Virus record (IMG/VR): IMGVR_UViG_3300040815_002027
From: a virus
DNA: 64,000 nt
Strand: one strand, 5' to 3'
In this document: one piece after another, positions 1 through 55,370 of the stretch
How the letters are laid out: every line of letters begins with the position of its first letter
How positions within the stretch are numbered: position 1 is the first letter of the stretch
Made by a program: the position numbers and the translations under genes
The notes under the pieces: generated by a model
Database searches by the model: none
Seen by the model: the letters and a program-made list of their open reading frames with translations, nothing else
What the model was told of the DNA's origin: nothing

Positions 1-974
1 GTACTACGGATACAGATACAAATAACTACGTCTGCAATGCTTCTTTTAATACAAGTAATGGAGAGTTAACTTTAAACAGGATATTAGGAGGAAGTGTTAC
101 AGTAGACTTAGATGGTAGGTACTGTACAACAGTTCCTACTGTGAACGATCCTACAATAAGCGTAACAGGTTTAGATGGTGTGTGTGTCTATGGGGACAAT
201 TCCTTTACTTTAAACCAATCAACACCTGGATGTGTAACTATATGTTCTGTAGACAGTCTTTGTTCTGTTACTGTGAGAGGGTCAACTACAGCTCAAACGG
301 TTGCTTTCCAAAACTGTGCGTATATTTTTTGCTCTACAGCATTAAACTCTAATATACTACCTCCATCTTCTTTAGGTGTAGGTTTAGTAGGTCCTTTTTA
401 TGCGTGCAATCTAACCGCAGAGCAGTCTCCTACTCATATATTAGCTATAAATAACCCTACAGGAACTTATCAAGGAGGTAGTGCAGAAGTTGTATATACA
501 TCTTTAGATCAATTAAATGCTCAAATATCTGGGAGTATACAGACAAGTCTTGGTACTGATCCTGGAACTTTAGATACTACTACTACAAATATTATATCGG
601 ATGGGGTTCATTGTCATGCTATAACTACAACTCAAACAGATACTGCTTCGACTATAGTTCAAACTAATGCTTGTGGAGAAATAACTGCTGCTAACTTTAT
701 AACAACCTCTGATAAGAGATTAAAGAAAGATATAGAGCCTATAAAAAGTGGGCTAGATGTACTACAAAAATTTAACTCATATACTTATCTAAAAAAAGGT
801 ATATGTGACGCTGGTTTTATAGCACAAGAGGTGTGTTCGGTATTACCTTATTCTGTACAGGAAGATAGTGAAGGTTTTTTAACTATAAAAGAAAATCATA
901 TATTAGCTCACATGCATAAGGCTATACTTGAACTAAATAATAAATTAAATTGTTTGGAAACTAAATTAGGTTAA
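1..974 (+). CDS. Tail fibre/spike protein, 5'-truncated by the window, with C-terminal peptidase S74 intramolecular chaperone; Cys-speckled
   Basis: Frame is open from base 3 (TTDTDTNNYVCNASFNTSNGELTLNR...), so the true start lies upstream of the window; C-terminal TSDKRLKKDIEPI...GFIAQEV is the S74 signature. Confidence 0.8.
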   Translation, partial: TTDTDTNNYVCNASFNTSNGELTLNRILGGSVTVDLDGRYCTTVPTVNDPTISVTGLDGVCVYGDNSFTLNQSTPGCVTICSVDSLCSVTVRGSTTAQTVAFQNCAYIFCSTALNSNILPPSSLGVGLVGPFYACNLTAEQSPTHILAINNPTGTYQGGSAEVVYTSLDQLNAQISGSIQTSLGTDPGTLDTTTTNIISDGVHCHAITTTQTDTASTIVQTNACGEITAANFITTSDKRLKKDIEPIKSGLDVLQKFNSYTYLKKGICDAGFIAQEVCSVLPYSVQEDSEGFLTIKENHILAHMHKAILELNNKLNCLETKLG

Positions 975-976
975 CA

Positions 977-2365
977 ATGCCCGTCCCTACTTCTGGTGAT
1001 TTTAAAATGTTTGATCCTAATGCTAATGATCCAGAGAGCATTGAAGGTGCTATTAATTCGCATGGTGGAGATACAAGTACATCAGATAGTTTTACAGACC
1101 TAATTTCTGTTTCTGTTGCTTCTTATTATGATCCTGTATATGCAGGTACTATAAATACTCCTTCTACTGATGTATCTGCTTCTGAACAGTTTAGAAATTA
1201 TCCTAATATATGCAAATGGGTAAGCTTATACAAGCTAAACAGTACTGACTGTACTTTGGATACCTCTATTCTTTATGTTGATTTTTCTGTTTGTTCTGGT
1301 AGTTTGAATCCCTATACTGTTGGAGATGTGTGGGGAGATGGTGCTTTTTGCTATGAGATACAGTCATTTGGCAGTCCTCCTGCCCCTAGATTCTTTTCTA
1401 CACCTACTAATATAGAGTTAGAGCCTATGACTCCATACGGTAGCTGTGAGGAGTGCTATGGTATAACTACAACTACTACGACAACATCTGCACCTACTAC
1501 AACTACTACGACTACCACCACAACTTGTACACCAGCAGGAACTCCTCTAGGCACGAGGAGCGAGTGTGTAGGTTTTGATGAGTATGTTTATAACGTATAT
1601 GCTGACGGGAACTGTGGAACTTATGAAGTTTACTCATATACTATACCAAATAGTACTAATTGTGGGTATACTACCACTACTACTACTACAACTACTACGA
1701 CAACAATAGCGCCTTTCAAAATATACTACAGACTATTAAGATACTTCTCAGATTGTTCAAATGATATAATACTAAGACAAGGGTACAGATGGAATTACGA
1801 GACACAGCCATCTATAAATGATTATGTGACTTTAGGAGATGGGTATTGCTACAGAATAACATCAGGAACTCCTGTAGGTACAGATCTAGGACAAATACAA
1901 TCTACTTTCTATAGTGATTGCTTTACTTGTTACGGAATAACTACTACTACGACAACAGACGCACCTACAACTACTACAACTACTACGACTACTACGACAA
2001 CAGACGCACCTACAACTACTACAACTACTACGACAACAGACGCACCTACAACTACTACAACTACTACGACTACTACGACTACAGCTGCACCTACAACTAC
2101 GACTACTACGACTACAGCTGCACCTACAACTTATAAGTACCTTATAGGAAGATGTACCTTGTTAGATCAGCAAAGAGTAGTAGAATCTACAGTGCTTCTA
2201 ACTCCTAGCCCGACAGGAGACGGATCTTCTGTTACAATCGTTGGAGGAGGTTCTCAATGCTGGGCAGTATTAAGCACAAGTACAGGCACTGCTACAGAAA
2301 TAGTAGATCAGGTATTCAGTTCATGTGCTATTTGCGAAGGTGGAGGCGAAGGTGGAGGCACTTAA
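977..2365 (+). CDS. Mucin-like Thr-rich/Cys-module protein, probably a virion appendage
   Basis: Long poly-Thr tracts (TTTTTTDAP/TTTAAP) separate Cys modules ending in CxxC; directly follows a fibre gene. Confidence 0.65.
   Translation: MPVPTSGDFKMFDPNANDPESIEGAINSHGGDTSTSDSFTDLISVSVASYYDPVYAGTINTPSTDVSASEQFRNYPNICKWVSLYKLNSTDCTLDTSILYVDFSVCSGSLNPYTVGDVWGDGAFCYEIQSFGSPPAPRFFSTPTNIELEPMTPYGSCEECYGITTTTTTTSAPTTTTTTTTTTCTPAGTPLGTRSECVGFDEYVYNVYADGNCGTYEVYSYTIPNSTNCGYTTTTTTTTTTTTIAPFKIYYRLLRYFSDCSNDIILRQGYRWNYETQPSINDYVTLGDGYCYRITSGTPVGTDLGQIQSTFYSDCFTCYGITTTTTTDAPTTTTTTTTTTTTDAPTTTTTTTTTDAPTTTTTTTTTTTTAAPTTTTTTTTAAPTTYKYLIGRCTLLDQQRVVESTVLLTPSPTGDGSSVTIVGGGSQCWAVLSTSTGTATEIVDQVFSSCAICEGGGEGGGT
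1940..2131 (+). repeat. Coding tandem repeat (Thr codon runs with DAP/AAP units)
   Basis: Three ACAGACGCACCTACAACTACT units and two ACAGCTGCACCTACAACT units separated by variable ACN runs. Confidence 0.9.
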
Positions 2366-2380
2366 TTTAAAATAAAGATT

Positions 2381-3301
2381 ATGATCAGGTTTATAATGGC
2401 GCAGCCCGCAATAAAATACTACTCATGGCAAGTAGAAGTTTTATTGAATAATATGATAGAGATAGGGATAAACCTAAATTACGTTGATGTTGTATGTTAT
2501 GTAGAAGATACTATACCTAAAGAATGGGATAAATTAAGACATGGTTATGCTGCAAGATTCTTCTTTTATAAAGATACTAGAGAGACCAAAAACTATATAA
2601 GCAGTATCAGGCCTAATATCTTAAAACAGCATTGGGAAAATCACCCGTATCTGGAAAACGAAGTGATTTTTTACCACGATTGCGACATAATCTTTACAAG
2701 ACCTCTTGATTTAGACAAGTACAAAAAGGACGATACCTGGTACGGTAGTGATACTAAATGGTACATAAGTTATGACTACATTATAGGAAAAGGAAATGAT
2801 ATCTTTAACAAAATGATAGATATTATAGACATTGATCCAGACATTATTATAAAAAATAATGATAACAGTATAGGCGCACAATATATTATGAAGAATGTAG
2901 ACAGGGAGTATTGGGAAGATGTAGAAAAAGACTCCGAAAATCTGTTTGTAGAGGTAACAAGTTTAAACAGTGAAAAGAAAAAAAAGGATCCAGATTATCA
3001 CGAGATACAAATATGGTGTGCAGATATGTGGGCAGTTTTATGGAACGCTTGGAAAAGAGGCTATATTACTAGATGTGATCCAGATTTAGATTTTAGTTGG
3101 GGGACATCAACAGAAGAAGACTATTATAAATACAATATAATGCATAATGCGGGGGTTACTGATGATAAAGGGGGTCTATTTTTTAAAGCAAAGTTTACAA
3201 ATAAATTTCCATACAATTTAAACTTGTCTATACGAAATAACACTGCGTCAAAAAAGTATTATGAGTGGGTGCAGAAAATAGAGAAAAAAACAGTTTTATA
3301 A
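2381..3301 (+). CDS. GT-A glycosyltransferase resembling plant HPAT/SERGT1 (GT95/GT96) protein O-glycosyltransferases
   Basis: Motifs YYSWQVEV, YISSIRP, IFYHDCDIIFTRPL (DxD) and WCADMWA occur in the same order as HPAT/SERGT blocks. Confidence 0.65.
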   Translation: MIRFIMAQPAIKYYSWQVEVLLNNMIEIGINLNYVDVVCYVEDTIPKEWDKLRHGYAARFFFYKDTRETKNYISSIRPNILKQHWENHPYLENEVIFYHDCDIIFTRPLDLDKYKKDDTWYGSDTKWYISYDYIIGKGNDIFNKMIDIIDIDPDIIIKNNDNSIGAQYIMKNVDREYWEDVEKDSENLFVEVTSLNSEKKKKDPDYHEIQIWCADMWAVLWNAWKRGYITRCDPDLDFSWGTSTEEDYYKYNIMHNAGVTDDKGGLFFKAKFTNKFPYNLNLSIRNNTASKKYYEWVQKIEKKTVL

Positions 3302-3327: not shown

Positions 3328-3969
3328 TTGTGGATGTTAAAAAATATACATCAAATATGGTTAGGTAATAAAAGAATACCTAAACACATAAAAGAATATA
3401 TGCAAGAAATAGAAAAAGAGCATAAAGAATACAATTACTTTTTTTGGAATGATAGTAATATACCTGATATGCCTAAAATTTTAAGATCAGTATTTGATTC
3501 TTTAGACCATCCTGCGATGAAAAGTGATTTACTAAGAGTGTACGTTCTTTATCTGCATGGCGGTATTTATTTAGATGTTGATTACAAATTATTAGCAAAT
3601 ATAGATAATCTTAAGTTAGATAGTAAAGATGACTATATAGTATATCAGAAAAAATCCAAAGTAGAAGACTTTAATTCATGTCTCTATATTTCAAACAAGA
3701 AAGGTAAGTTTGTATCATATATGTTAAAAACAATTAATGAAAAAAAAATGTGGTTAGGACCTCATTGGTATGCAAAATGTATATATGATTATTTAGGGCT
3801 AGAGAAACATTGTGATTATAAAGATATTTTAAAAAAATGTGATGAAAATAATATAGGGTACATTGATTGGGACTATTTTGATAGTAACATTGCTAAACAT
3901 ACTTTTATGGCATCATGGTATCCAGATTCATTTTGGAAGAAAAAGTTTGATGAAGATAGTTATGAGTAA
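3328..3969 (+). CDS. GT32 (DXD, Och1-like) glycosyltransferase; real start may be ATG 3334
   Basis: KNIHQIWLG, SDLLRVYVLYLHGGIYLDVD, WLGP. Confidence 0.85.
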   Translation: MWMLKNIHQIWLGNKRIPKHIKEYMQEIEKEHKEYNYFFWNDSNIPDMPKILRSVFDSLDHPAMKSDLLRVYVLYLHGGIYLDVDYKLLANIDNLKLDSKDDYIVYQKKSKVEDFNSCLYISNKKGKFVSYMLKTINEKKMWLGPHWYAKCIYDYLGLEKHCDYKDILKKCDENNIGYIDWDYFDSNIAKHTFMASWYPDSFWKKKFDEDSYE

Positions 3970-4008: not shown

Positions 4009-4599
4009 ATGGTAACATCTTATTTTTTTAAATCTAGACAAAGTAATTTTGGTAATTACTATTTTCTTAATGATGCCTTAACTAAGGACGAGATAGATAG
4101 CATACTAACTTCTGTAGAGTATATACCCTCTCAAGACGCTATTATAGATGATAGCAGTAGAGAAACTAATATAAGAACCTCTATTATTAAATGGATACCA
4201 AAAAACCAGGATTGGGAATGGTTGTATTATAGATTATTTGATATAATGAATATTGCAAATAATTCTATGTGGAATTTAGATATAACCACTATGTTTGATA
4301 TGATACAGTATACTGAGTACTACGCTACAGAAAACGGGCATTATGATTGGCATATGGATGTAGGATCTGGGGAGGCTTCTTATAGGAAAATTTCTATTTC
4401 TGTACAAATATGCGAGGCAGATGATTTTGAGGGAGGTGACTTACAGATGTGGTTAGGCGGTACAAGTTTTTTAACTATGCCTAAAGGTATAGGAAATGCT
4501 GCTGTTTTCCCTAGTTTTTTTATGCATAGAGTATCTCCTATCACCAGAGGAGTTAGAAAAAGTTTGGTAATGTGGGCGGGAGGAACTCCTTATAGATAA
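4009..4599 (+). CDS. 2OG-Fe(II) oxygenase (prolyl hydroxylase/PKHD-like)
   Basis: HYDWHMD (HxD), RKISISV, FEGGDL, FPSFFMHRVSPITRGVRKSLVMW. Confidence 0.9.
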   Translation: MVTSYFFKSRQSNFGNYYFLNDALTKDEIDSILTSVEYIPSQDAIIDDSSRETNIRTSIIKWIPKNQDWEWLYYRLFDIMNIANNSMWNLDITTMFDMIQYTEYYATENGHYDWHMDVGSGEASYRKISISVQICEADDFEGGDLQMWLGGTSFLTMPKGIGNAAVFPSFFMHRVSPITRGVRKSLVMWAGGTPYR

Positions 4600-4617: not shown

Positions 4618-4625
4618 TATTTATA
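4618..4625 (+). promoter_or_regulatory. Putative late promoter TATTTATA
   Basis: Recurrent intergenic 8-mer upstream of structural genes. Confidence 0.65.
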
Positions 4626-4654
4626 GTAAATATTTATTATAAAACAAAACTATA

Positions 4655-5272
4655 ATGAAAAGGAGACAACTTTCAGAAGCAGACTTAAAAAAATTAGGAC
4701 AAAAGATAAACAGAGGTTTTGATTTTTTAAAGCAAGGGTTAGAAACTAAAGAATTAACTAAAGATAAAGTATTAGCATTATTGCAAGACTTACTCCATTC
4801 TTTATATAATACAGGTAAAATAACAAAGCAGCAGGTATTAAATATTACACGTGATTTACCTAGTCAAAAGCCGAGACCTAATCAGCAGCAGTCTATGGCT
4901 GAAAGAAAGTTTACGAATGAAGACGTTAGAGAATTATATGAATTGTTGACTATTTTAAAAGAGATAAGAGAAGAAGAAGAAAAAACTCCTGCTGAGGATC
5001 CAAAAGATGTTGAAGCTAAGGAAGAAGAGCCTAAAGAGGAAGAACCAAAAGAAGAGCCGAAAGATGAGGAACCAAAAGAAGAAGAGCCTGAGTCTAGCGA
5101 ATTAGTGTCTGCTTTGTTTAAAACTACTGCTGGTAAAAATTTTAAAAGATTAGTAGGTAATATTTCAAATCAAGAAGAAAAGGCTGAGGTTATTATTGAC
5201 TTGATTAAGGAATTACCGAAGGCTGATAGTCAAACGTTAAGTAATAAGCTGAGAAGATATTTTTCTAATTAA
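4655..5272 (+). CDS. Hypothetical acidic protein with EEPKE repeats, possibly an internal head protein
   Basis: ORF preceded by the late motif; low-complexity acidic linker. Confidence 0.5.
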   Translation: MKRRQLSEADLKKLGQKINRGFDFLKQGLETKELTKDKVLALLQDLLHSLYNTGKITKQQVLNITRDLPSQKPRPNQQQSMAERKFTNEDVRELYELLTILKEIREEEEKTPAEDPKDVEAKEEEPKEEEPKEEPKDEEPKEEEPESSELVSALFKTTAGKNFKRLVGNISNQEEKAEVIIDLIKELPKADSQTLSNKLRRYFSN

Positions 5273-11686: not shown

Positions 11687-13405
11687 ATGAAAGATTTATT
11701 AGTAGAATATATACCATTTAATATTTCTCCTAGTATAATACAGGAGAGTATTTCTATTAATGGCAAGATACTAGTCTCTGGAGTATTACAAAGAGCTGGA
11801 GCAAAGAATCAGAATGGTAGAGTTTACCCTAAAGATGTTTTACAAAGAGAAGCTGAAAAGTACAATCAGGAGTTTGTAGCTCAAAATAGAGCATTGGGTG
11901 AATTGGACCACCCAGAGTGCCTAACATCTTCAGCTGAATTAATGACAACAGATGGATGGAAGTATCTTAAAGATTTGTCTGGTTCTGAAAAAGTTTTTAC
12001 TTTAAATAGATTTACTAATGAAATAGAAGTAAAGTCTATAAATAAAGTAATAAATGAGCCGTATAAAGGTAAGATGGTGGTAATAAAAGGTAAAAACATT
12101 AATACGACTGTAACTCCTAATCATAAATTTATAGTCACAGATAGAAATGGTGTGAACACTTTTATTACTGCACAAGAAATATTAGATTTATCTAAAAAAA
12201 TAAAGGTATCTCATTTAGCTATACCTAAAACAGGTATTTGGAGAAAAGATGCTTATGAAGATTCTTTTACTATAGATCCTGTAGAAACTAATAAAAGGTC
12301 TTCTAAGAAAAGATCTGAAGAGCAATCTAAACCTTTAGTTCTGAACACTAAAGCTTTTTTCGCCTTTTTGGGATTCTATTTTGCTGAAGGAGGTGTGGAT
12401 AAATCAGGGAGATCTAATTCTATAACTTTTACTCAAAACAAAGGAGAAGTTTTAGATGAGTTTAAGTCTATACTAAAAGAATTAAGTGATGAACTACATT
12501 GGAAAGAGTATCCCAAGTCTTTGAAAAGCGTTATGTTAAAAGTATCTGATCAGAGATTGCATACTTTTTTAAAAGATTTTGGGAATGTGTATACTAAAAG
12601 AATACCTGAATTTATAAAAGATAGCCATCCAGAATTATTAGATATTTTCTTAGAGTGGTATATAAAAGGAGATGGTACTATAGTTAGGAGTAATGGGTAT
12701 GATAGGTGTTCTGTTTTTACTGTTTCAAAAGGTATGATAGAAGACTTAAATGAGATATTAATTAAAGTAGGATCTTCTGGGGTTATAAAAGAGCAAGTGT
12801 CTAAAAAAGATTATAATTTTGCTGGAAGAGTGATACAACATAAAAATAAAAAGACGCTATATAGGCTTTGGTTTGAGAAGTCTAAATACATTCATTTAGA
12901 TTTTAGATTTATAGATGTTGAAGAAGTAGATTACGAGGGTAATGTTTATTGCATAAATACAGATAATGAAACTTTTTACTGTAGAGATAATAAAAAAAGT
13001 TTTTGGAGTGGTAATTCATCTGTAGTTAATTTAGCAAATGCTTCCCATAATGTTATAAAAATGTGGTGGGAAGGAGATGATCTTATGGGTAAGGTAGAGG
13101 TACTCCCTACACCTTCTGGTAATATTCTAAAATCATTACTAGAGTCTGGAGTTACTTTGGGTATTAGTTCTAGAGGAGTAGGTTCTGTAAAAGAAGTATT
13201 TACAGAAGATAGGCAGAAGTATTTGCAAGTACAAGAAGATTTCGAATTAGTATGTTTTGACTTTGTTTCTAACCCTTCGACTCATGGAGCATTTATGAAT
13301 CCTGTTAGAGAAAGTGTGGGAGATGCAAACAACAAGACAGCAAAAATAAATAAACTAATCACTGATATAATATGTGATATAGGGGAATATTGTCCCTGTA
13401 ACTAA
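11687..13405 (+). CDS. Prohead core protease (T4 gp21-like) containing an intein
   Basis: NQNGRVYP, ALGELDHP, LGISSRGVGS, FDFVSNPST. Confidence 0.93.
   Translation: MKDLLVEYIPFNISPSIIQESISINGKILVSGVLQRAGAKNQNGRVYPKDVLQREAEKYNQEFVAQNRALGELDHPECLTSSAELMTTDGWKYLKDLSGSEKVFTLNRFTNEIEVKSINKVINEPYKGKMVVIKGKNINTTVTPNHKFIVTDRNGVNTFITAQEILDLSKKIKVSHLAIPKTGIWRKDAYEDSFTIDPVETNKRSSKKRSEEQSKPLVLNTKAFFAFLGFYFAEGGVDKSGRSNSITFTQNKGEVLDEFKSILKELSDELHWKEYPKSLKSVMLKVSDQRLHTFLKDFGNVYTKRIPEFIKDSHPELLDIFLEWYIKGDGTIVRSNGYDRCSVFTVSKGMIEDLNEILIKVGSSGVIKEQVSKKDYNFAGRVIQHKNKKTLYRLWFEKSKYIHLDFRFIDVEEVDYEGNVYCINTDNETFYCRDNKKSFWSGNSSVVNLANASHNVIKMWWEGDDLMGKVEVLPTPSGNILKSLLESGVTLGISSRGVGSVKEVFTEDRQKYLQVQEDFELVCFDFVSNPSTHGAFMNPVRESVGDANNKTAKINKLITDIICDIGEYCPCN
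11918..13015 (+). mobile_element. Intein (366 aa) with LAGLIDADG homing endonuclease in the prohead protease
   Basis: HPE|CLTSSAE ... VTPNHKF (block B) ... FLGFYFAEG, WYIKGDG ... VYCI ... WSGN|SS. Confidence 0.92.
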
Positions 13406-16889: not shown

Positions 16890-17864
16890 ATGGAGTTACC
16901 AGGAGATCCATTATTTTTAGAGGAGCATGAAGAAGTGGATACAGTTTTTACTGATTTTGCATATACCGAAAAATATGTAATTGTACATATAGAGGGAGGT
17001 TTAGGGAAACACATAGCAGCTACGGCAGTTTTAAAGGCTGTAAAAAAGAAGTATAGCGATAGAAAAATTATTGTAGTATGTGGTTATCCAGAGGTGTTCC
17101 TATGGAACCCTGATTGTTGGAGGGTGTATGGCTTAGGAAATACCCCCTATTTTTATGATGATTATGTAAGAGGTAAGGATACTATTATCTTAAAAAATGA
17201 TCCTTATGCTACTACTGACCATATTCATCAAAGGAGACATCTTATAGAAAGTTGGTGCGAGGCCTTTGGATTAGAGTATGATAATGAACTTCCTAACTTA
17301 TATACTCCTTATAGAATGGCAGAGTTAGTTATACAAAAATACTCTAATAGAAATAAGCCTATTCTTCTTTTACATACAAATGGAGGTCCTTACAACGCTG
17401 ATAATAACTATGACGTTAATCAACTAGTAAGTTGGTCTAGAGATATGCCTTTGCCTATAGCTGAAGGTATAGTTAAACATTTCTCTAAAACACATCACAT
17501 TATTCAAATTTGTAAGAGTAAAGAGAATAGGATTCCTGGAGTAGAGCATATAGTAGGTCCTCAATACAATTTAGAGCTAATATCTTTACTTAGGATAGCT
17601 GATAAGAGGATTTTAATAGACTCATGTCTACAGCATGCAGCAGCTGCCTTTAGACTTCCTTCTACAGTATTGTGGAATGGAACATCTCCTACGGTTTTTG
17701 GATATAGCCTACACAATAATATCACTCCTAAAAGGGAGTATATGGAAGGATTTAAGAATATAAAAGCTTACTTATATGACTATGAGCTTTGGGGAGACCC
17801 AATTCAGTGTCCTTATGATACTAATGACATTTATGATTTAGAAACAATAGTAAAAACAACTTAA
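16890..17864 (+). CDS. GT9-like (heptosyltransferase-fold) glycosyltransferase, paralogue 1
   Basis: HIEGGLGKHIAATA at the N-terminus; LIDSCLQHAAAAFRLPSTVLW matches the GT9 D-S/T-x-x-x-H-x-A-A motif. Confidence 0.75.
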   Translation: MELPGDPLFLEEHEEVDTVFTDFAYTEKYVIVHIEGGLGKHIAATAVLKAVKKKYSDRKIIVVCGYPEVFLWNPDCWRVYGLGNTPYFYDDYVRGKDTIILKNDPYATTDHIHQRRHLIESWCEAFGLEYDNELPNLYTPYRMAELVIQKYSNRNKPILLLHTNGGPYNADNNYDVNQLVSWSRDMPLPIAEGIVKHFSKTHHIIQICKSKENRIPGVEHIVGPQYNLELISLLRIADKRILIDSCLQHAAAAFRLPSTVLWNGTSPTVFGYSLHNNITPKREYMEGFKNIKAYLYDYELWGDPIQCPYDTNDIYDLETIVKTT

Positions 17865-30348: not shown

Positions 30349-31263
30349 ATGAGTTTTGACAGTCAAGAAAAGTTTGTAATTTTCCACATTGCAGGTGGAG
30401 TAGGTAAACATATTGCAGCAACAGCTGTGTTAGAAGGTATTAATGATAAATACCCAGACAGAAAACTAATTGTAGTATGTGCTTGGACAGAAGTATTTGA
30501 ATTTCATCCATTAGTAGATAGAGTTTATCAGTTAGGTAATACCGATTACTTTTATCAAGATTATATTGAAGGTAAAGATGTTGTAATACTTATGCACGAC
30601 CCTTATCATGTTACAGGACATATAAAACAGGAACAGCACTTGATTAAAAGTTGGTATGAATGTTTAAATCTTGACTATAATAACCAACTACCTAAGTTGT
30701 ACAGTTCTTATAGAATAAGAGAAATTGTATTGCAGAAGTTTAGAAGAAACAAGCCTATTATGCTTATTCACAGTAATGGTGGTATGATACCTAATGATAA
30801 TGAAGTTAATCCTTACAACATTAAAAGTTGGGCAAGAGATATGCCTTTAAGTCTTGTACAGAAATTAGTAGATAAATATAAAGATACATATCATATTATG
30901 CAGGTTTGTAAGCATAAGAATAACTTAGTACAGGGTGCAGAGTATGTACAAACACACTCTTTATTAGAGTTGTTTACTTTGTTAAGATTGACTACTAAAA
31001 GAATTTTAATAGACAGCTCTTTGCAACATGCAGCAGCTGCTTATCAGTTACCTTCTGTTGTTTTATGGAATACAACATCACCTAATGTATATAGCTATGA
31101 TATACATAAGAATGTTTTATCTAATAAAGAAAAACTAACAGCAAAAAATAGAACAACCTATTTCGAAGAGTATGCAATAGATGGCAACCCTTTACAATGT
31201 CCTTATGAAGATGAGGATATATTTGATTTTGAAGAAGTTACAGAACTCGTAGATAAATTATAA
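30349..31263 (+). CDS. GT9-like glycosyltransferase, paralogue 2
   Basis: HIAGGVGKHIAATA, LIDSSLQHAAAAYQLPSVVLW; collinear with the 16890 gene. Confidence 0.75.
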   Translation: MSFDSQEKFVIFHIAGGVGKHIAATAVLEGINDKYPDRKLIVVCAWTEVFEFHPLVDRVYQLGNTDYFYQDYIEGKDVVILMHDPYHVTGHIKQEQHLIKSWYECLNLDYNNQLPKLYSSYRIREIVLQKFRRNKPIMLIHSNGGMIPNDNEVNPYNIKSWARDMPLSLVQKLVDKYKDTYHIMQVCKHKNNLVQGAEYVQTHSLLELFTLLRLTTKRILIDSSLQHAAAAYQLPSVVLWNTTSPNVYSYDIHKNVLSNKEKLTAKNRTTYFEEYAIDGNPLQCPYEDEDIFDFEEVTELVDKL

Positions 31264-52616: not shown

Positions 52617-55370
52617 ATGTCGTACGATAAATATTATTGGCTTAATGATGATGCAAGAACTTTCTTATCAAGAGGGTATATACAAGAATCTGCCGAAGAA
52701 AGAATTAAGGAAATAGCAGATGCTGCTGAAAGATTATTAGGTATCCAAGGGTTCTCTGAAAAGTTTGAAGACTATATGTCAAGAGGTTTTTATAGTCTTT
52801 CTACTCCTGTGTGGGTTAATTTCGCTAAAGATAAAGGACTGCCTATAAGTTGTTATGGCTCCTATGTTGATGATAGTATGGATTCTATGTTAGATGTTAC
52901 AAAAGAGATTGGAATGATGTCAAAATATGGAGGAGGAACTTCTGCTTATTTAGGTGATATACGGCCAAGAGGTGCTTCTATAAGAACTGGCGGTAAGGCT
53001 GATGGACCAGTACATTATGCTAAACTTTATGATACTGTTATAGATGTGTGTAAACAAGCTGAAGCAAGACGAGGTGCTTGTGCTGTATACTTACCCGTAG
53101 AACACGATGATATTTTGGAATTTTTAGATATTGCCACAGAAGGTAATCCTATTCAAAATTTACAGTATGGAGTTACTGTTGGAGATGAGTGGTTACAACA
53201 TATGAAAGATGGGGATTCCTATAAGAGAAAAGTTTGGGCGAAGATTATACAAAGAAGAGGAGAGATTGGACTTCCTTATATTATGTTCAGAACTACAGCT
53301 AACCTTAATACTCCTTACAAGTATTTACCTTATACTATAAAAGCGTCTAATCTATGTTTAACTTCTGATCAAAGGGTTGTTACCTCAAAAGGGTATTTAA
53401 CAGTACAAGAACTCTATGAAAGTGAGGAGGAGCTAATTTTGTTTGATGGAGAGAAAGAAGTTAAAGCATCAAAAATGTTATTAAGGGATGATAATTCAGA
53501 AGTTCTTAAAATAACTTATTCAAATGGAATGTCTCAAAAAGTAAGTCCTAATCACGGAATAGCTGTGTTAAATGATACTAAAAAAGATATAGTAAGAGTA
53601 GAGGCTAAAGATTTAAGAATAGGAGATTATGTTGCTACTCAAACTAATAAAGGTATCTTCGGAACAGTAGATATGAAAGATGAAGCATTTTTATTAGGAT
53701 TATATCAAGCAGATGGAACACAGCATAAAGATTCGATTATGATTGATATATGGGAAAATGATTTTGATTTAGTAGATGAAATCCAAGAAAAATTTAATAA
53801 AATACATTATGAATATGGTTGTGATACTTATCAAGTAGTTAATCAAACGGGCAAAACTAATTCTGTAAGAAAAAGAAAACCAGCTGAGTTCGTTGAGTGC
53901 TGTACTAACCAATCTACAGTTAGAAAGAAACGATTAACTTCAAGAACTTTAAAAAAAGCATTAAACTTTGAAAAAGGGTATGTTCCATCTTGGGTATGGG
54001 AGGCTAATGAAGAGACTGTATGGTCATATTTAAGAGGTCTTTTATATGCAGATGGTACAGCAAATTTAGGAACTTCTAACGGTAATCCATTACAAATAAG
54101 TTATGCTTGTATCAACAGAGGCTTTTTGGAAGAATTACAAGTATTATTTACAAATTTAGGACTCTCTTCTTCTATAAAAATATTAAGACATGCAGGAGAA
54201 ACTTTATTGCCTGATGGTAAAGGTGGTCATAAATATTATAATACTCAAGATTGTTGGCGATTAATATTTTCAAATAAAAATGATGCTTTAAAAATAGAAG
54301 AAAAAACATCTTTCCTAACAAGAAAAGGTGTGGTTATAGAGTCAAGAGATTACAGAGATAATTCTAAAAAAAGAGCAAAGGTAATATCCATAGAAAAATT
54401 AGAAAATGAACCAGTATACTGTCCGACTGTTTATACTGATGAGCATATTTTTGTTTCAAATGGGTTGAAAACTTTTAATTGTTCGGAGATAATGCTCCCT
54501 TCAGATGATGATGTATCTTTTGTTTGTTGCATAGGATCTATAAACTTACTACATTGGGATGAGATAGAGAAAACAGATGCTGTAGAAACCTATGTTTATT
54601 TTTTAAATGCAGTAATGGATGAGTTCATACAAAAGGCTTGGGATTTACCAGGAATGAAGAAAGCTCATAGATTCGCAAGAGAACATAGGGCAATAGGTGT
54701 AGGAGTTTTAGGGTATCACTCTTTACTTCAGTCTAAAAATATAGCTTTTGAGTCCTTACAAGCAAAGCAATACAATCATAAGATTTTTAGTACATTAAAA
54801 GAGCGTACAGATAAGGCTTCTCAAGATTTATATATGTCTATGCCTACAAAGTATCAATGTGTTAGAGATGGATATGCTAACTCTACTTTAATGGCTATTG
54901 CTCCTACAAAATCAAGTTCTTTTATTTTAGGTCAAGTATCTATGGGTATTGAGCCTATTAAGTCTAATTACTTCGTAAAAGATTTAGCAAAGATAAAGAC
55001 TGTATATAAGAATCCTTTCTTAAAAGCAGAGTTAGAAAAGTATAGTTTAGATACCGAAGAAGTTTGGGATAGCATTCTTAAAAAAGATGGATCCGTACAG
55101 CACTTAGATTTTCCTACAAAAGAAGTGTTCAAAACTTTTGTAGAGATTTCTCCAAAGGAAATAATTTTACAAGCAGCACAGAGGCAGAAGTATATAGACC
55201 AGTCTCAGAGTTTAAATTTACAAATACACCCTTCAATACCTGCTAAAGATATTAATCAACTATATTTATATGCTTGGGAGGAAGGTATCAAAACTCTGTA
55301 CTACCAGTTTAGTCAAAACTCTGCACAAATGTTTTCAAGAAATATTTTAGAATGTGTAAGTTGTGAGTAA
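52617..55370 (+). CDS. nrdA: Ribonucleotide reductase class I alpha subunit with intein, no ATP cone
   Basis: STPVW, LPISC, GGGTS, RRGA, SNL|..|CSE, VCCIGS, APTKSSS, DQSQS, KTLYY, C-terminal CxxC. Confidence 0.95.
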   Translation: MSYDKYYWLNDDARTFLSRGYIQESAEERIKEIADAAERLLGIQGFSEKFEDYMSRGFYSLSTPVWVNFAKDKGLPISCYGSYVDDSMDSMLDVTKEIGMMSKYGGGTSAYLGDIRPRGASIRTGGKADGPVHYAKLYDTVIDVCKQAEARRGACAVYLPVEHDDILEFLDIATEGNPIQNLQYGVTVGDEWLQHMKDGDSYKRKVWAKIIQRRGEIGLPYIMFRTTANLNTPYKYLPYTIKASNLCLTSDQRVVTSKGYLTVQELYESEEELILFDGEKEVKASKMLLRDDNSEVLKITYSNGMSQKVSPNHGIAVLNDTKKDIVRVEAKDLRIGDYVATQTNKGIFGTVDMKDEAFLLGLYQADGTQHKDSIMIDIWENDFDLVDEIQEKFNKIHYEYGCDTYQVVNQTGKTNSVRKRKPAEFVECCTNQSTVRKKRLTSRTLKKALNFEKGYVPSWVWEANEETVWSYLRGLLYADGTANLGTSNGNPLQISYACINRGFLEELQVLFTNLGLSSSIKILRHAGETLLPDGKGGHKYYNTQDCWRLIFSNKNDALKIEEKTSFLTRKGVVIESRDYRDNSKKRAKVISIEKLENEPVYCPTVYTDEHIFVSNGLKTFNCSEIMLPSDDDVSFVCCIGSINLLHWDEIEKTDAVETYVYFLNAVMDEFIQKAWDLPGMKKAHRFAREHRAIGVGVLGYHSLLQSKNIAFESLQAKQYNHKIFSTLKERTDKASQDLYMSMPTKYQCVRDGYANSTLMAIAPTKSSSFILGQVSMGIEPIKSNYFVKDLAKIKTVYKNPFLKAELEKYSLDTEEVWDSILKKDGSVQHLDFPTKEVFKTFVEISPKEIILQAAQRQKYIDQSQSLNLQIHPSIPAKDINQLYLYAWEEGIKTLYYQFSQNSAQMFSRNILECVSCE
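53355..54479 (+). mobile_element. Intein (375 aa) with LAGLIDADG endonuclease at the RNR catalytic Cys
   Basis: SNL|CLTSDQ ... VSPNH ... LLGLYQADG, LRGLLYADG ... VYCPTV..H.F..KTFN|CSE. Confidence 0.93.

Follow-up and report, generated by a model that had tools for sequence, protein, structure and literature searches.

A phage glycosyltransferase family remotely similar to plant HPAT/SERGT1 enzymes is encoded beside poly-threonine proteins

Introduction

Peptide glycosyltransferases of family GT95 (HPAT1-3, RDN, PLENTY and NOD3, the hydroxyproline O-arabinosyltransferases of plants and algae, which transfer L-Araf to Hyp) and of family GT96 (the peptidyl-serine alpha-galactosyltransferase SGT1/SERGT1, which adds alpha-Gal to Ser), like the Pfam family PF23452, are predicted to adopt a GT-A fold, as is the phage enzyme considered here. 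For GT95 this prediction comes together with a described relationship to GT96 (PMC8476585, PMC8012813), HPATs have been described as plant-specific (PMC4738400), and the plant enzymes act on hydroxyls of repetitive, proline-containing peptide tracts (PMC8012813).

On the phage side, the closest described system is the virion glycosylation of mycobacteriophages, as outlined in a passage of PMC11256854 that cites Freeman et al. 2023; according to that passage, phage-encoded glycosyltransferases of Che8 and Rita decorate the phages' own capsid proteins and produce a glycan shield, and a similar role is proposed for the enzyme described below. The hosts of those phages are Actinobacteria, unlike the hosts of the phages that carry the present gene. 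Virion glycosylation has reportedly been shown for a few mycobacteriophages and is said to alter antibody recognition. Tail-tube proteins of the mycobacteriophages that Freeman and colleagues studied in 2023 are said to be decorated too, and the system reportedly relies on glycosyltransferases of other families, whose genes lie near the genome end and not in the structural operon. To our knowledge, no poly-Thr tag takes part in mycobacteriophage virion glycosylation.

Here, we show that a phage gene of the phrog_4417 family encodes a conserved protein of the GT-A fold class, that this protein is remotely similar to HPAT, and that the gene is linked in phage genomes to genes for poly-Thr proteins. 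A literature search covering phage glycosylation, poly-threonine tags and HPAT/GT95/GT96 in phages returned no account of phrog_4417, of a GT95/GT96 kinship or of phage poly-Thr tags. The present analysis adds a GT8 control with shuffle statistics, a contrast between carriers and non-carriers with positive controls, and the placement of a neighbouring oxygenase outside the conserved system.

Genomic context of the gene

The window, by which we mean the whole 64,000-nucleotide stretch analysed, comes from a 102-kb phage record of IMG/VR and is AT-rich (30-39% GC). Since it encodes a T4-type portal, a gp23-type capsid protein, a prohead protease and a large terminase, the phage is read here, on gene content, as a T4-like myovirus fragment. 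A crAss-like identity, suggested by crAss domains in the relative L004, was considered and dropped in view of the T4-type portal, capsid and prohead protease in the window. Inteins with a LAGLIDADG homing endonuclease domain are found in the genes for the prohead protease (Peptidase_S77) and the ribonucleotide reductase large subunit (11687-13405 and 52617-55370). Two ORFs of about 310 aa (16890-17864 and 30349-31263), which the first-pass annotation had called GT9-like, are without a Pfam match at E<=0.001.

The gene under study lies in a run of five plus-strand genes. The run opens with the C-terminal part of a tail fibre carrying an S74 intramolecular chaperone domain (3..974; PF13884, 3.9e-10; many tail-fibre PHROGs), which puts the cassette in the fibre module. 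A mucin-like protein of 462 aa follows (977..2365), presumed to be the acceptor, and 15 bases after the stop of its gene begins the ORF of the enzyme itself (2381..3301), a soluble, HPAT/SERGT1-like GT-A glycosyltransferase. Downstream are a second glycosyltransferase of the Gly_transf_sug (DXD) type (3328..3969; PF04488, 5.2e-14) and a 2OG-Fe(II) oxygenase of the PKHD/PiuC type (4009..4599; PF13640, 2.5e-10; PiuC structures, 1e-4; NCBIfam PRK05467).

A conserved enzyme family with the GT-A fold

The ORF at 2381..3301 runs from ATG to stop and encodes 306 aa; an identical protein is present in a public protein collection (P0001), and the 102-kb record holds one copy of the enzyme. Residues 3-301 match positions 2-292 of the 293-position profile phrog_4417 (E 3.3e-67), a cluster of unknown function whose members are nearly all unnamed and viral. 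The family is large, with 2,683 clusters at 90% identity in one collection and at least 968 at 50% in another; the best 150 of the 968 matches in the large profile search are all close relatives. Searches with the single protein gave no match in Pfam at E<=1, in NCBIfam or among PDB sequences, and the phrog_4417 family profile gave chance matches only against PDB sequences.

The first-pass annotation, made from the letters of the DNA, had quoted four motif blocks as recalling the plant enzymes. All four are indeed present, in the order given, and are conserved across phrog_4417. Block 1, YYSWQ (residues 13-17; 2417..2431, plus strand as for all motifs here), aligns with HPAT Y..WQ. Block 2, YISSIRPNILKQHW (residues 72-85; 2594..2635), aligns with HPAT Y.VLNRPWAFVQW and also with GT8 Y.R.I...L, and block 3, IFYHDCDIIFTRPL (residues 96-109; 2666..2707), aligns with HPAT AEPDHIF..PL and also with GT8 YLDADI, being the DxD motif for metal and nucleotide sugar (D100, D102). 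Block 4, IWCADMWA (residues 211-218; 3011..3034), aligns with HPAT GWVLEMYA, at a place where GT8 reads (D/E)QD.LN. A further C-terminal motif, IMHNAG ... F.K (H255, G258, F267, K269; 3137..3187), aligns with HPAT IIHYTYG ... F.DK, and H255 lines up also with the His of the GT8 motif H..G..KPW. With roles drawn from GT8 structures, H255 would be the third metal ligand and K269 the diphosphate-binding Lys.

Conservation falls on these same blocks. Among 25 relatives at 58-87% identity, W16, Q17, Y72, S74, S75, R77, P78, N79, D100, D102, Q210, W212, D215, M216 and W217 are invariant; among 50 relatives reaching down to 31% identity, Y72, D102, M216, H255 and K269 are invariant and W16, D100, Q210, W212 and W217 are at least 90% conserved. 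D100 and D102 are invariant in the other 103 relatives as well. In members from Firmicutes phages Q17 is replaced by E, so that block 1 reads W-E.

The AF2 model of the product (pLDDT 95.9) has a GT-A fold, and the solved structures nearest to it are retaining GT8 and GT24 enzymes, in a PDB comparison where GT95/GT96 structures were absent among the matches and a kinship with HPAT could therefore not show. The GT-A fold, the DxD motif and the C-terminal His metal ligands by which GT8 enzymes are recognised are all present. The protein starts with MIRFIMAQP, its first beta strand covers residues 2-9 in the model, and neither a signal peptide nor a membrane anchor nor a hydrophobic N-terminal segment was detected; it thus lacks the type II membrane anchor that goes with the Golgi location of HPAT.

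Longer relatives place the HPAT-like domain N-terminal to GT2, Gly_transf_sug, GT6, GT25 or GT7C domains, and other C-terminal partners are a methyltransferase and a radical SAM/SPASM domain. Individual fusion proteins (P0133, P0143, P0129 and P0152) join the HPAT-like domain to radical SAM/SPASM, to a methyltransferase, or to Gly_transf_sug plus GT2. Because the model is GT-A, because DxD, H255 and K269 are conserved and because relatives are fused to known glycosyltransferase domains, it is safe to call the product of 2381-3301 a glycosyltransferase. We read it as a cytoplasmic, metal-dependent GT-A enzyme, probably of the retaining class.

Remote kinship with HPAT and SERGT1

The first-pass annotation had proposed a phage homologue of the eukaryote-type HPAT/SERGT1 enzymes, and had named a best profile match to GT8, or to a family lacking the blocks, as the outcome that would speak against it. 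By hhalign, HPAT scores higher than GT8. The phage family aligned with HPAT at a score of 31.5 (P 0.0023) over 265 collinear columns, and with GT8 at 27.7 (P 0.0075) in a local alignment of 56 columns around DxD, while HPAT against GT8 reached 19.0 (P 0.13) over 12 columns. Further pairs of phage and HPAT alignments gave P values of up to 0.011 over 254-270 collinear columns. The HPAT set consisted of named plant HPATs and algal PF23452 domains, gathered with a 79-residue bait from Arabidopsis HPAT1 that had a 100% database match; as only HPAT-type and algal PF23452 sequences were compared, GT95 and GT96 are not separable in these scores. The GT8 control alignment held 37 WaaO/WaaJ relatives, from the E. 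coli waa cluster and other genomes.

Column shuffles of HPAT gave a null distribution with mean 15.9, sd 2.7 and maximum 23.4 (n = 87); none of the 87 reached the real score, which lies at z 5.8, and the real GT8 score lies at z 4.0 in the shuffle test. The hhalign probability for the phage family against HPAT was 5-13%, computed without secondary-structure scoring. An HPAT HMM scored above 5 bits in 82 of 270 family members, always in the block from RP to DxD; none of the reversed and 1 of the shuffled control sequences exceeded that score.

In the hhalign alignment, the four blocks together with H..G and F.K stand in register with HPAT, and the HPAT order Y..WQ, NRPW, (A)EPD, GW.LEMY, H.TYG, F.DK is kept with the substitutions IRPN, HDCD, ADMW and HNAG. 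The likeness to HPAT/SERGT1 is thus one of full-length, collinear WQ, (N/I)RP, (E/D)xD, (E/D)M(Y/W), H...G and F.K blocks. What does not stand is the specificity of all four quoted blocks. In the extended alignment, GT8 too has counterparts of blocks 2 and 3 and of the His motif, and only blocks 1 and 4 are shared with HPAT alone; blocks 2 and 3, which align with GT8 Y.R...L and LDADI, are therefore superfamily features.

Structure comparison points the same way. When a model of the plant HPAT catalytic domain (pLDDT 90) was compared with viral models, the best match was A0A6J5SW30 (E 5e-10, TM 0.63/0.60), ahead of the next viral match by two orders of magnitude, and this protein is a member of the phage family (43% identity, and TM 0.94 to the model of the window protein).

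Membership in GT95/GT96 proper was considered and rejected. The product of 2381-3301 has no match to PF23452 (gathering cut-off 23.9 bits) at E<=1, only 3 of 153 relatives give a match, all of them below threshold (best E 0.019), and a six-frame PF23452 search of the genome was empty, but carries no weight because it was empty for control genomes as well; in a protein atlas, two related viral clusters carry PF23452 on 10% of their members. PF01501 (GT8) matches 0 of 153 members at E<=1. Since the Pfam match is missing and the relatives' matches are few and sub-threshold, our reading is that the phrog_4417 family is a sister family, a remote one, of GT95/GT96 inside a GT8-like superfamily. By the profile scores, GT8 comes out as a close second to HPAT among candidate relatives. 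The proposed homology is therefore upheld as a remote one, together with its reading as a peptide glycosyltransferase.

Differences from the described families are considerable. Compared with HPAT, the phage enzyme is about 17-19% identical and without a Pfam match, has no N-terminal anchor and is predicted to be cytoplasmic rather than Golgi-located, and its likely acceptor is Thr, not the Hyp or Ser of HPAT/SERGT1. The GT8/GT24 enzymes (glycogenin, LgtC, WaaO/WaaJ, GlyE, the Skp1 alpha-galactosyltransferase and the UGGT catalytic domain) are 9-12% identical to it and are without the WQ and (E/D)M(Y/W) blocks, both of which the phage enzyme has.

Association with poly-threonine proteins

The protein encoded at 977-2365 is 25% Thr and is built of Cys-containing modules joined by T6-T12 runs with SAP, DAP, AAP or IAP as spacers. 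It has no Pfam or PHROG match, and it is the one protein in the 102-kb record with runs of at least six Thr, directly upstream of the enzyme gene. We surveyed the neighbours of the gene in 6 distinct metagenomic contexts (7 loci) and in 9 cultured phages, scanning them for Thr/Ser runs. In L004, L095, L096, L097 and Chryseobacterium phage MA9V-3, the gene adjoins genes for fibre-like proteins that contain many T6-T40 runs and are mostly encoded directly upstream, and in L002 and L094 no poly-Thr protein was found within the available flanking DNA. L004 (JGI contig Ga0611985_0000452), a crAss-like phage with crAss_MUZ domains, encodes a 65%-identical homologue that is flanked by a poly-Thr fibre protein and a second poly-Thr protein. 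As L004 is crAss-like and the window T4-like, the cassette moves between unrelated phage lineages.

A second arrangement is seen in siphophages, whose hosts here are Enterococcus, Lacticaseibacillus, Lactococcus, Staphylococcus and Clostridium. In phiFL1A, iLp84, 1706, VPE25, SauS-SA2 and phiCTP1 the gene is part of the structural module, where it either immediately follows the gene of the major tail protein or lies close to that of the capsid. Seven siphophages of Firmicutes, namely those six and R3.3, have a major tail protein that ends in T6-T21, and the head or capsid protein also has a poly-Thr end in phiFL1A, iLp84, 1706 and phiCTP1; the runs of phiCTP1 are T5-T6 only. In two of these phages the same tag occurs on the capsid and the major tail protein, T9-10-HHD in Lactococcus phage 1706 (L008; 468-2528 and 3238-3975) and T7-SK in iLp84 (L007; 3450-4490 and 7339-7938), a pattern that would fit the copying of a short C-terminal cassette from one gene to another. 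Between the capsid and glycosyltransferase genes of iLp84 lies iLp84_8 (4620-4997), a protein of 125 aa made almost entirely of Thr runs with KP, VAP and EAPP spacers; from this composition, it may be a dedicated glycosylated decoration protein.

Phages without the gene provide the contrast. Homologues of the phiFL1A tail protein, at 50-60% identity, occur in three Streptococcus prophages, in Pediococcus phage cIP1 and in Lactobacillus phage phiJL-1, and these five end at or shortly after a conserved ...PGE.TG(D/E)(Y/F) with no Thr run. The enzyme was absent from all five of these records, and the same search, as a positive control, found it in 5 of 5 carriers. All five siphophage carriers tested had tracts of about seven Thr codons, every one at a structural gene and on the coding strand, and none of the five non-carriers had any genome-wide; a control pattern read backwards gave no tract. 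The carriers are partly related and their counts overstate independence: because structural modules are related among carriers, the contrast of seven against five does not represent seven independent events. In the Herelleviridae LP65 (L001) and SAC12B (L012), which encode enzyme homologues at 20-31% identity, no tract coding for Thr7 was found genome-wide, so that any protein acceptor there must be of another kind.

The neighbouring glycosyltransferase

The Gly_transf_sug enzyme at 3328-3969 is probably an elongating enzyme, as gene order and fusions suggest. A gene of this family also follows the enzyme gene in L002, L003 and L094, and P0129 and P0152 are fusions of Gly_transf_sug with the HPAT-like domain. 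In L002, L003 and L094, a Methyltransf_24 gene lies between the HPAT-like and Gly_transf_sug genes. This placement hints at methylated sugars.

Proposed function and competing explanations

Because the gene stands beside poly-Thr virion proteins here and in many unrelated phages, its product most likely sugar-coats the phage particle. We consider it likely, on genomic grounds, that the enzyme initiates O-glycosylation of the phage's own virion proteins at their poly-Thr tracts. It would add the first sugar to Thr hydroxyls within these tracts, either ahead of virion assembly or while assembly proceeds, and its target in this phage would be the mucin-like protein encoded directly upstream (977-2365); the Gly_transf_sug enzyme would then extend the glycan, so that a fibre-like appendage of the virion would come to carry a glycan coat. 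Presumptive elements of this scheme are the identities of acceptor residue and donor sugar, the anomeric outcome and the virion location of the 977-2365 protein. By analogy with the plant enzymes, the phage enzyme may likewise act on hydroxyls of repetitive, proline-containing peptide tracts, and the peptide-glycosyltransferase reading of the first-pass annotation fits the family-wide link with poly-Thr virion proteins. A more general proposal is that many tailed phages of Bacillota and Bacteroidota possess a hitherto undescribed O-glycosylation system of the mucin type, encoded in their genomes. Its parts would be a short poly-Thr tag, either in fibre linkers or at the C-termini of capsid and tail-tube proteins, and a dedicated cytoplasmic initiating glycosyltransferase, whose phage and bacterial family would share a specific common ancestor with GT95/GT96. 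This proposal could equally well prove right or wrong.

The nature of the acceptor has to be weighed against the plant precedent. An extensin-type pathway, in which the 2OG oxygenase would hydroxylate the prolines of SAP, DAP and AAP and the enzyme would glycosylate the resulting hydroxyproline as plant HPAT does, is suggested by the position of a member of the prolyl-4-hydroxylase-like PKHD group two genes downstream, by Thr runs that are interrupted by x-A/K-P spacers both here and in other phages, and by the Hyp-specific enzyme within the nearest named family. The oxygenase, however, was found beside the enzyme gene in 0 of 6 distinct metagenomic contexts (7 loci) and is absent from 4 of 4 complete carrier phage genomes, by a search that detects the copy in the window; since only this genome has it as a neighbour, its membership of the system is doubtful. 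Tags without proline exist (T10-HHD in 1706, T7-SK in iLp84 and T6-SHA in R3.3), and a substrate of PiuC-type enzymes was not found among the search results. We therefore regard the extensin-type pathway as quite improbable. As a general rule a hydroxyproline acceptor is unlikely, because the oxygenase is not conserved with the family and several tags are without proline; it may still serve an additional step in the present phage, whose Thr runs are spaced by SAP, DAP and AAP. On the evidence, Thr is a better candidate for the acceptor than hydroxyproline.

O-antigen and DNA are well-known substrates of phage glycosyltransferases, and the enzyme might be an ordinary member of the GT8 superfamily acting on host envelope glycans (including in superinfection exclusion or receptor masking) or on phage DNA, its likeness to HPAT reflecting a shared catalytic core. 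The closest solved folds, GT8 and GT24, would agree with this, as would the alignment of blocks 2 and 3 and the His motif with GT8 and a GT8 profile score only 4 units under that of HPAT. Yet in phages infecting several bacterial orders, temperate as well as lytic, the gene lies within late structural operons and immediately follows tail-tube or capsid genes; the enzyme is without a membrane anchor, the gene comes and goes with poly-Thr tags, and the alignment is full-length with HPAT and local with GT8, which together make this explanation unlikely. The Thr runs could also be plain flexible linkers or slippage-prone tails, with the gene linked to them by shared ancestry of structural modules, given that the tail proteins of the carrier siphophages are related and that the runs are encoded by repetitive ACN tracts expandable by slippage. 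That account is very improbable in our estimate, as the link spans Bacillota siphophages, a Chryseobacterium phage, a crAss-like contig and a T4-like phage with unrelated structural proteins, the same tag recurs on the capsid and tail proteins of one phage, and homologous tail proteins in phages without the gene have no Thr tail.

Implications

Members of the family occur in phages of Enterococcus, Staphylococcus, Lactococcus, lactobacilli, Clostridium and Bacteroidota. If O-glycosylation of poly-Thr tracts by this enzyme is true, it would constitute a second and much wider virion glycosylation system than the one of mycobacteriophages, built from a simple, portable acceptor tag (a Thr run) and a single small initiating enzyme. 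For phage therapy, a glycan shield could change immunogenicity, and the finding would bear on dairy phage biology, since several carriers infect lactic acid bacteria. As a tool, tag and enzyme together could give site-directed O-glycosylation in bacteria. Finally, with a sister group of GT95/GT96 in viruses of prokaryotes, one could test where the extensin glycosylation enzymes of plants originated.
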